Notes: a model not told the origin generated them from the letters alone. DNA of 64,000 nucleotides from Escherichia coli (GCF_011045215.1 NZ_CP049201.1), one strand, 5' to 3'. Numbered from the stretch's first letter, positions 63,415 to 64,000 are shown. Program-made: numbers and translations.

Positions 63415-63434
63415 AGGTCGGTCATGAGCACTAA
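63255..63434 (+). CDS. Small phage protein (59 aa) from a TTG start, or the C-terminal part of a frameshifted gene
   Basis: SD AAGGAG 8 nt before TTG; product [59 protein letters not shown]; stop overlaps the next gene's ATG region. Confidence 0.35.
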
Positions 63435-63820
63435 ATTAACCGGCTATGTATGGGATGGTTGCGCTGCATCAGGCATGAAATTATCCAGCGTGGCAATTAT
63501 GGCCCGCCTGGCTGATTTCAGTAATGACGAAGGTGTGTGCTGGCCATCAATTGAAACCATTGCCCGCCAGATTGGCGCGGGGATGAGTACCGTCAGAACG
63601 GCTATCGCACGGCTGGAAGCAGAAGGCTGGTTAACGCGTAAGGCGCGTCGCCAGGGTACCGTCGTGCCGCAACCGTGTGGATGGCGGCATTCCGTGAAAG
63701 CCACTCCCAGCCAGAACGAAACAATTTTCTGGCGCGTCGTGAGCGGTGCTTACGGAAAAGCAGCAAGCGCGCTGCATCGGGTGAAGAGTGGTATCTGTCA
63801 GGGAATTACGTGGGGGCTTA
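63424..63820 (+). CDS. Phage HTH protein resembling replisome-organiser N-termini; apparent frameshift near 63640-63680
   Basis: N-terminus [70 protein letters not shown]. After about codon 75 the protein-like signal moves to another frame, which terminates with TAA at 63818-63820. Confidence 0.4.
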
Positions 63821-64000
63821 ATGACGACGTTAACTCAATGCCAGCAGCAGGTGCTGGATATGCTGATTTCTTACCAGAAAGAACGTGGCTTCCCGCCAAC
63901 CAATCAGGAGGTGGCTACCATGCTGGGATACCGTTCAGTGAATGCAGCGGTGGAGCATCTTCGCGCACTGGAGAAAAAAGGCGTCATCACGATAAAGCGT
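63821..64000 (+). CDS. LexA-like winged-helix DNA-binding domain protein, N-terminal 60 aa (continues beyond window)
   Basis: MTTLTQCQQQVLDMLISYQKERGFPPTNQEVATMLGYRSVNAAVEHLRALEKKGVITIKR resembles the LexA N-terminal domain (F/MPPT..E.A..LG.RS.NA..EHL.AL..KGVI); GGGGG SD-like run upstream. Confidence 0.55.
   Translation, partial: MTTLTQCQQQVLDMLISYQKERGFPPTNQEVATMLGYRSVNAAVEHLRALEKKGVITIKR

Follow-up and report, generated by a model that had tools for sequence, protein, structure and literature searches.

A deletion in the O-like initiator gene of a defective lambdoid prophage of Escherichia coli ends at a recurrent breakpoint

Phage lambda, with its O gene and ori-lambda, is the paradigm of replication iterons inside an initiator gene. 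Phage SfII (KC736978), which is intact and viable, has an initiator of the same design, with an N-terminal winged helix-turn-helix (wHTH) domain and iterons in its own coding sequence; SfII encodes a 313-aa initiator with at least six iterons, an intact yfdN and a dam gene. A lambda P-like gene is absent from the SfII-type family. Here we analysed a 64,000-nt stretch of the Escherichia coli sequence NZ_CP049201.1 (the window; coordinates are window positions); it ends in a defective prophage, lambdoid and of the SfII / CPS-53 (KpLE1) type, within the early-right operon. In this operon, an O-like replication-initiator gene starting at 63424 is broken after codon 78 and joined to the 3' part of yfdN. 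Over 62200-64000 the window is 98% identical to SfII genes 37-48, gaps aside.

Two defective prophages of E. coli K-12 offer the closest parallels. In e14, the upstream genes ymfL and ymfM are the same as in the window and the O-like stump, oweE, comprises the same 234 bp (78 codons), fused to a terminase fragment, aaaE, to form ymfN, annotated as a "chimeric replication protein/phage terminase YmfN". The e14 break lies in the same GGGT(A), but its crossover, with GGT as microhomology, is shifted to the left by 1 nt. Extending as far as the large-terminase gene, the e14 deletion greatly exceeds that in the window, which spans only about 1 kb. The former yields an in-frame chimera of 455 aa, whereas the window junction is out of frame and, to the extent that the window covers it, the remainder of the early-right operon has been retained. 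CPS-53 (KpLE1; yfdO/oweS-yfdN-yfdM) belongs to the same prophage family (yfdP/Q/R/S/T, yfdN) and has a deletion ending at the same TA dinucleotide as in the window, but the side retained is the right one, with an intact yfdN and the sequence for the C-terminal part of the O-like protein, while the immunity region and the O-like N-terminus are gone; in the window it is the left side that remains. The CPS-53 deletion thus runs leftward, joining catcaTA/tcgacc to cagggTA/ACCGC (slash, crossover).

Deletion between the O-like gene and yfdN

BLAST alignment of window positions 63000-64000 with an intact relative (L001) matched 63000-63658 to L001 3001-3659 and 63657-64000 to L001 4576-4919, which corresponds to a deletion of 918 bp with an overlap of 2 nt. 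Relative to SfII the deletion measures 1035 bp, the larger gap reflecting the additional iterons of SfII; both lengths (918-1035 bp) are relative to the relatives compared, and the iteron number of the true ancestor sets the actual size. The junction falls at 63657-63658, where the dinucleotide TA is common to both parents (left CAGGGTA/ACCGC, right GCTTATA/CCGTC) and the product contains GGTACC. At this point the left parent reads ...CGCCAGGGTA followed by ACCGCAATG, the right parent reads ...GGGGCTTATA followed by CCGTCGTGC, and the product reads ...CGCCAGGGTACCGTCGTGC, that is, CAGGGTA/CCGTCG in the window. Codon 78 of the O-like gene is thereby joined to codon 111 of yfdN in a different frame (offset 2), which explains why the O-like frame turns into junk at the junction while a second frame becomes protein-like. 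These data show that a single illegitimate-recombination deletion, with its crossover at the TA dinucleotide, produced this arrangement, and there is essentially no evidence contrary to the deletion itself.

The O-like remnant (63424-63658, + strand) consists of codons 1-78, which encode the wHTH domain, and the A of the crossover TA. Its 78 residues are all identical to those of SfII_41 ("O protein family") and of E. coli prophage homologs, and residues 22-70 of the open reading frame (ORF) starting at 63424 match Pfam HTH_36 (E 3e-12), the winged-helix domain being complete. Similarity is lost after codon 78, since only 2-3 of the 42 residues at positions 79-120 are identical to the homologs. 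The first-pass annotation had placed the end of protein-like character near codon 75; the break is real, with homology extending to codon 78. The intact homolog of this gene matches PHROG 391 ("replication initiation O-like") from end to end (E 1e-135). The earlier suggestion that a phage replication module begins here is supported. Intact alleles encode 274, 303 or 313 aa. In SfII, the gene contains an array of at least six 15-nt units resembling TCAAAATCTGACCCG (L006 4513-4635), which lies about 55 nt to the right of the position of the break; because these iterons lie within the coding sequence, the replication origin is placed inside the O-like gene, as in phage lambda.

Lost with the deleted DNA are all iterons, the sequence for the C-terminal two thirds of the initiator and codons 1-110 of yfdN, about two thirds of that gene from its 5' end. 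No iteron remains at this locus in the window, and the C-terminal domain needed for recruitment of the replication machinery (about residues 140-313 in SfII_41) is missing from the window gene. Because both the iterons and the C-terminal part of the initiator were taken by the deletion, the prophage lacks an origin and an initiator of its own and is unable to replicate from such an origin. The O-like gene of the window is thus a truncated deletion pseudogene, and its stump is of the oweE type already known from e14. Among intact O-like alleles the iteron count differs (L001 3425-4249 versus L006 4225-5166), and in the 274-aa allele 117 bp separating two copies of ATGCGTCGAA are missing, and most iterons with them, while the frame is kept.

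To the right of the junction, positions 63657-63821 (+ strand) hold the 3' remnant of yfdN (PerC family), comprising codons 111-164 and the stop codon and lacking a start codon. The frame from 63657 reads YRRAATVWMAAFRESHSQPERNNFLARRERCLRKSSKRAASGEEWYLSGNYVGA up to the stop and is identical at 51 of 54 positions to residues 111-164 of YfdN encoded in L001. The second frame noticed earlier (63675-63820) is therefore real coding sequence, as had been proposed, yet it belongs to yfdN and not to the C-terminus of the HTH gene. Its apparent GTG start at 63675 is only a mechanical ORF start, and Pfam found no domain in the 48-aa ORF fragment 63675-63818. As intact YfdN has 164 aa with the PerC domain at residues 100-154, the segment does not qualify as a complete PerC ORF and is best described as a gene remnant. 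Its TAA stop codon (63819-63821) overlaps the ATG of the next gene (63821-63823) by one nucleotide, forming TAATG (63819-63823), rather than ending 1 nt before it as first described.

Reading on from the stump, the ORF of 63424 has no stop codon up to position 64000 (192 codons), in agreement with the first-pass annotation. This chimeric ORF (63424-64000, + strand, running past the window) consists of O-like codons 1-78 followed by an off-frame reading of the yfdN remnant and of the downstream gene, which encodes a LexA-type domain. With relatives as a proxy for the sequence beyond 64000, its stop codon is expected after 201-221 codons, and in L001 and a second relative, L007, this alternative frame likewise stays open, over 123-143 codons. 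Stop-free off-frame stretches of 114 codons make up only 0.17% of such windows in the long ORFs of the sequence analysed. Searches found no homologs of the tail of at least 114 codons after codon 78, and its openness is for this reason taken as chance. The chimeric product would retain an intact wHTH domain plus a junk tail of more than 114 codons. Ribosomes translating it would cross the start of the LexA-domain gene in the wrong frame, and the read-through probably breaks the translational coupling of yfdN to that gene through TAATG.

A recurrent deletion endpoint

The TA following CGCCAGGG, at codon 78/79 of the O-like gene (site S1; window 63657-63658), is the end of eight distinct junctions in complete genomes, found in loci including L003, L005 and L008-L013, with e14 and CPS-53 among them. 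Seven of these are rightward deletions sharing the left end CGCCAGGGT(A), and the leftward deletion of CPS-53 is the eighth. The right partner of S1 is yfdN in the window, the LexA-domain gene in LZHX12, the 3' end of the DUF968 gene in H2, S3 and one IMG/VR viral contig, another DUF968 site in PCN061, kilA-N in ETEC4073, a tail-fibre assembly gene in K_EC180 and the large terminase gene in K-12 e14.

A protein search with the 78-aa head pointed to the same site. Among 119 short protein clusters, 43 depart from the intact protein immediately after residue 78, and eight further clusters leave after residue 79 and three after residue 80, which corresponds to the same DNA site with longer microhomology; in total, about 54 of the 119 clusters end there. 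A second hotspot, S2, at residues 60/61 (DNA ACGGCTA/TCGCA), accounts for 18 of the 119 clusters, and the remaining clusters are scattered. Past the break, the clusters carry fragments, in or out of frame, of RusA, the LexA-domain protein, KilA-N, DUF968, Q, spanin, methyltransferase, both terminase subunits, tail genes and IS3 OrfA. Of the 54 tails that could be placed on reference DNA, 53 lie in direct orientation, as simple deletions, and two chimeras checked on contigs indicate that a deletion can take nearly the whole right arm of the prophage.

The partner sites resemble one another. Of 29 parental partner sites, 20 have TA at the crossover, against an expectation of 4.7% (p 2e-20); positions -3 and -2 are enriched in G, and C occurs at +2 in 16 of 20 (p 1.5e-6), the full GG..TA..CS motif being present in only 6 of 20 partners. 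The likeness extends to partners without contiguous homology to the left site, where GG occupies -3/-2 in 7 of 15 (background 8%) and C followed by C or G occupies +2/+3 in 10 of 14 (background 15%). SfII contains only 29 GGNTANCS sites. Three of them fall within the 5' part of the O-like gene, one at each of the three breakpoint clusters (codons 60/61, 70 and 78), and five others are observed partner sites. Moreover, several partner sites are paired with both left hotspots. These data show that the choice of breakpoint is non-random: in related prophages, many independent deletions terminate at this TA (after CGCCAGGGTA). No description of this hotspot was found in the full-text literature searched, the coverage of which did not extend to the 2004 analysis of e14 (Mehta, Casjens, Krishnaswamy). 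The nucleotide thus appears to be a previously undescribed, highly recurrent deletion endpoint. Only if several gaps are allowed does the type I-E CRISPR repeat of K-12, CGGTTTATCCCCGCTGGCG, resemble S1 in reverse complement, CGGTTACCCTGGCG, and the partner site in rusA, CCGGTTATCCCGG; this may be a coincidence.

We consider it very probable that the locus as a whole reflects one deletion of about 0.9-1.0 kb in a decaying lambdoid prophage, with one end at a recurrent breakpoint. As a caveat, the junction in the window rests on one sequence: joining of O-like codon 78 to yfdN codon 111 was found in 0 of 5426 complete E. coli genomes, and in none of the sequences in the genome_contigs and metagenome_contigs collections, while the one IMG/VR viral contig that matched the junction 20-mer has a different right partner (the DUF968-type junction). 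Other points weigh against an intrinsic property of the site as the cause of the hotspot. The protein search returned short clusters only, so that the census is a sample. The motif was derived from sites that had recombined with S1 or S2, and part of the likeness among partners could reflect pairing and not recognition by an enzyme. Two junctions outside the O-like gene in these prophages fit poorly: the motif is absent from one, which crosses over at AA, and only half present in the other, which crosses over at TAC; hence the GGNTANCS motif is not universal. Finally, the hairpins just 5' of both hotspots are small, and their folding is no better than that of shuffled sequences (z -1.3 to -1.5).

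Other accounts of the locus fare worse. It is conceivable that the chimeric product, a wHTH domain with a tail of 120-140 aa, is itself functional, for example as a dominant-negative origin-binding protein excluding related phages, and that the tail is under selection. The wHTH domain is indeed complete and 100% conserved, a stop-free off-frame run of at least 114 codons is rare (0.17%), and fragments of the lambda replication region are reported to inhibit rep-lambda phages (PMC3349717). However, the tail is an off-frame translation of two real genes and lacks homologs, sibling chimeras bear unrelated tails of all kinds, and many siblings break at codon 60/61, where the wHTH domain is destroyed, indicating that no particular product is selected. 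Furthermore, the exact junction was found in this sequence alone. We therefore regard a functional chimera as improbable.

It is very improbable that the junction is an artefact, whether through collapse of the assembly or through a KpnI deletion made by engineering. The junction does create a KpnI site (GGTACC, 63655-63660), and no second record carries the same junction; but neither parent has GGTACC at the breakpoint (GGTAAC on the left, ATACCG on the right), which makes religation of KpnI ends impossible, the repeat is with 2 nt too short for an assembly collapse, and analogous junctions occur at the same nucleotide in many closed genomes, K-12 among them. We also considered an adjacent deletion mediated by the insertion sequence IS100 and rejected it; the IS100 copy in the window lies 5.6 kb away, and the end of the IS100 copy in yfdN of L007 lies 151 bp from the right breakpoint. 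As for the first-pass proposal of a simple frameshift (an indel of 1-2 nt) in the HTH gene, with its true C-terminus in the second frame 63675-63820, the protein-like reading frame does switch near codon 78, but the explanation is almost certainly wrong, as that frame is 51/54 identical to another protein (YfdN 111-164), intact homologs have 196-235 more codons and the iteron array between the two points, and the DNA alignment contains a 918-bp gap and no indel. The gene is thus a pseudogene, as had been suspected, through a deletion of 918-1035 bp and not a frameshift. Homologs in which the frame of 63424 continues here as a long conserved protein, which the first-pass annotation had named as refuting it, are not seen; the homologs do extend over 274-313 aa, but the sequence by which they do so is missing from the window. 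From 63424 onward, the DNA should be annotated as a truncated O-like pseudogene and a yfdN remnant, followed by an intact-looking small gene with a LexA-type domain, and not as a long HTH protein or a frameshifted gene.

The LexA-domain gene and the prophage context

The gene following yfdN is represented in the window by the 5' 180 nt (63821-64000, + strand) of a 327-nt gene encoding a 108-aa protein; it continues past the window and is followed by rusA in relatives. The ATG at 63821-63823 opens MTTLTQCQQQVLDMLISYQKERGFPPTNQEVATMLGYRSVNAAVEHLRALEKKGVITIKR, and the 60 aa encoded in the window match Pfam LexA_DNA_bind (E 2.5e-18), in agreement with the first-pass recognition of a LexA-type winged-helix domain at the head of this gene. 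All 60 residues are identical to those of SfII_44 and of 108-aa proteins from E. coli prophages, and it is from these homologs, 60/60 identical over the window portion, that the part past 64000 was judged. Residues 2-70 of the 108-aa homologs align to the DNA-binding domain of E. coli LexA (PDB 1LEA, E 7e-16), and the recognition helix is nearly that of LexA (RSVNAAVEHL in the phage protein versus RSPNAAEEHL in LexA). Over its full length the 108-aa homolog belongs to PHROG 362, labelled "transcriptional repressor".

Compared with LexA itself (TIGR00498; PDB 1LEA, 1JHH, 3JSO), whose residues 2-70 are covered by the alignment with the N-terminal winged helix, the phage protein is short, at only 108 aa, and lacks the S24 domain and the catalytic Ser/Lys. 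Indeed, Pfam detected no Peptidase_S24 domain in the full-length 108-aa homologs, and their score against the LexA equivalog TIGR00498 was 71.3, under the cut-off of 110.95. Because the S24 domain is absent and the score falls below the LexA cut-off, the SOS link proposed in the first-pass annotation is unsupported where it would act through self-cleavage. The same annotation had alternatively viewed this gene as a replication initiator, a role that belongs to the truncated HTH gene (PHROG 391). The 108-aa protein is accordingly neither a LexA orthologue, nor an SOS-inducible repressor of the LexA type, nor a replication initiator, and is predicted to be incapable of self-cleavage. Since its recognition helix is nearly identical to that of LexA, it may possibly bind SOS-box-like DNA, as the DNA-binding half of LexA does. 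An LLAGEE stretch is present in the 108-aa homologs (L001 4740-5066), in which the peptidase domain is absent; this stretch presumably lies at about the position of the LexA cleavage region. The protein could be a putative non-cleavable binder of SOS-box-like DNA, or a putative substrate cleaved in trans.

The prophage is integrated in an Escherichia/Shigella chromosome beside tRNA-Arg(TCT) (54164-54240) and directly follows the sfm fimbrial operon and fimZ, with an intD-type integrase gene adjacent in relatives; we take this to be the argU/DLP12 attachment position and not the argW site of CPS-53. The window is about 99% identical to E. coli chromosomes, and the nearest phages are SfII and SfIV (about 98% identity). 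Upstream, the window contains the intD-type integrase gene and the early-left genes yfdT-yfdP, which are split by a copy of IS100 (IS21 family; 56095-58050) inserted in the yfdS/yfdT area. In the relative L007, IS100 lies in yfdN instead, so that it must have inserted independently in the two prophages.

Intact relatives have the gene order cI (on the - strand), cro, ymfL, ymfM, the O-like initiator, yfdN, an optional dam, the LexA-domain gene, rusA, kilA-N, DUF968 and Q; the dam methyltransferase gene is present in SfII and absent from the window and several relatives (L001, L007). The corresponding immunity region of the window encodes a cI-type repressor (61485-62177, - strand; a 230-aa ORF of the HTH_3 plus S24 peptidase type), the counterpart of which is labelled "XRE family transcriptional regulator" or "CI repressor" in L001, L007 and SfII. 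The rightward early operon begins with a cro-like gene (62275-62535, +; Cro repressor in the SfII annotation, HTH protein in those of L001 and L007), followed by a ymfL / cII-like regulator gene (62528-63079, +; Pfam Phage_CP76, E 1.5e-13; annotated ymfL in relatives) and a ymfM homolog (63076-63414, +), whose 112-aa product is identical to K-12 YmfM at 110 of 112 residues. YmfM of e14 is an SOS-inducible inhibitor of cell division (bioRxiv 10.1101/2020.11.19.390815). A 59-aa DUF4222 ORF (63255-63434; Pfam E 8.6e-19) overlaps ymfM in another frame. The K-12 annotation lists ymfM, and the RefSeq/PGAP annotation of other strains lists DUF4222 only; the two cannot easily be reconciled as ordinary genes.

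Possible causes of the recurrent breakpoint

The lesion itself is ordinary prophage decay, and its interest lies in the breakpoint. Deletions of this kind may be kept by selection, as they would rid the host of replication and lytic functions by which induction kills it, but selection alone cannot explain a precision of one nucleotide. With low confidence, we suggest that S1, and likewise S2, may be intrinsically prone to breakage or template switching, both sites lying in a GGNTANCS-like context. Hairpin-induced slippage was considered and found unsupported (z -1.3 to -1.5 against shuffles). Two explanations agree with the majority of the data.

One possibility, which we regard as tentative, is that a sequence-specific nuclease or recombinase, encoded by the phage or the host, cuts the central TA of GGNTANCS-like sites and that rejoining deletes the interval, in which case either two cut sites would be rejoined or one cut end would be joined by microhomology. 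Such an activity would account for the nucleotide-precise endpoint in eight DNA junctions and about 54 protein clusters, for the symmetric, discontinuous motif at partner sites, for the three breakpoint clusters that fall on motif copies near the 5' end of the O-like gene, and for the use of the same partner sites by both left hotspots. The great excess of deletions over inversions (53:1) is also as expected if the excised fragment is lost. On the other hand, nine of the 29 partners lack TA, the full motif is present in only 6 of 20, the two non-O junctions fit poorly, and no candidate enzyme emerged, those considered, namely RusA, DNA gyrase and Pin/Gin-type invertases, being disfavoured. RusA cuts 5' of CC in junctions, and such a cut would fall 1 nt to the right of the observed S1 crossover; RusA is thus disfavoured. 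The Gin/Cin/Pin invertase consensus is ...AAACC NN GGTTT..., which neither hotspot fits. DNA gyrase cleavage leaves 4-nt 5' overhangs, with quinolones favouring scission before G (PMC6379681). Gyrase is also disfavoured, since a 4-nt stagger at NTAN predicts mixed bases at -1 and +1, whereas in nearly all junctions the -1 base derives from the left site and the +1 base from its partner.

The other explanation, equally doubtful in our view, is template switching, in which a polymerase would stall beside the phage origin and the nascent 3' end (...GGGTA) would re-anneal downstream at short imperfect matches, selection against replicative killing then enriching the products. The location of the site about 55 nt from the iterons, the junction microhomology of 0-7 nt (mostly TA), the fact that nearly all events are simple deletions and the leftward deletion of CPS-53 at the same TA are all consistent with it. 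Against it stand the lack of significant secondary structure for a stall, the unexplained likeness of partners on the right flank (C at +2 in 16 of 20), and the lack of an account of how the origin of a repressed prophage would stall forks at one nucleotide.

If the first of these explanations holds, S1 and S2 may be sequence-specific break or recombination sites in a GGNTANCS-like palindromic context, acted on by a putative activity that, through repeated cutting and rejoining, would "ground" lambdoid prophages, taking away the origin and the lytic genes while leaving their immunity intact, a proposal that we put forward as a possibility only. If it is true, e14, CPS-53 and the window prophage would have arisen through a single defined molecular process, not by random decay. 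More generally, should the cause be a defined enzyme or a process linked to the origin, prophage domestication would be partly programmed rather than random, and the S1 site would provide an experimental handle on it.

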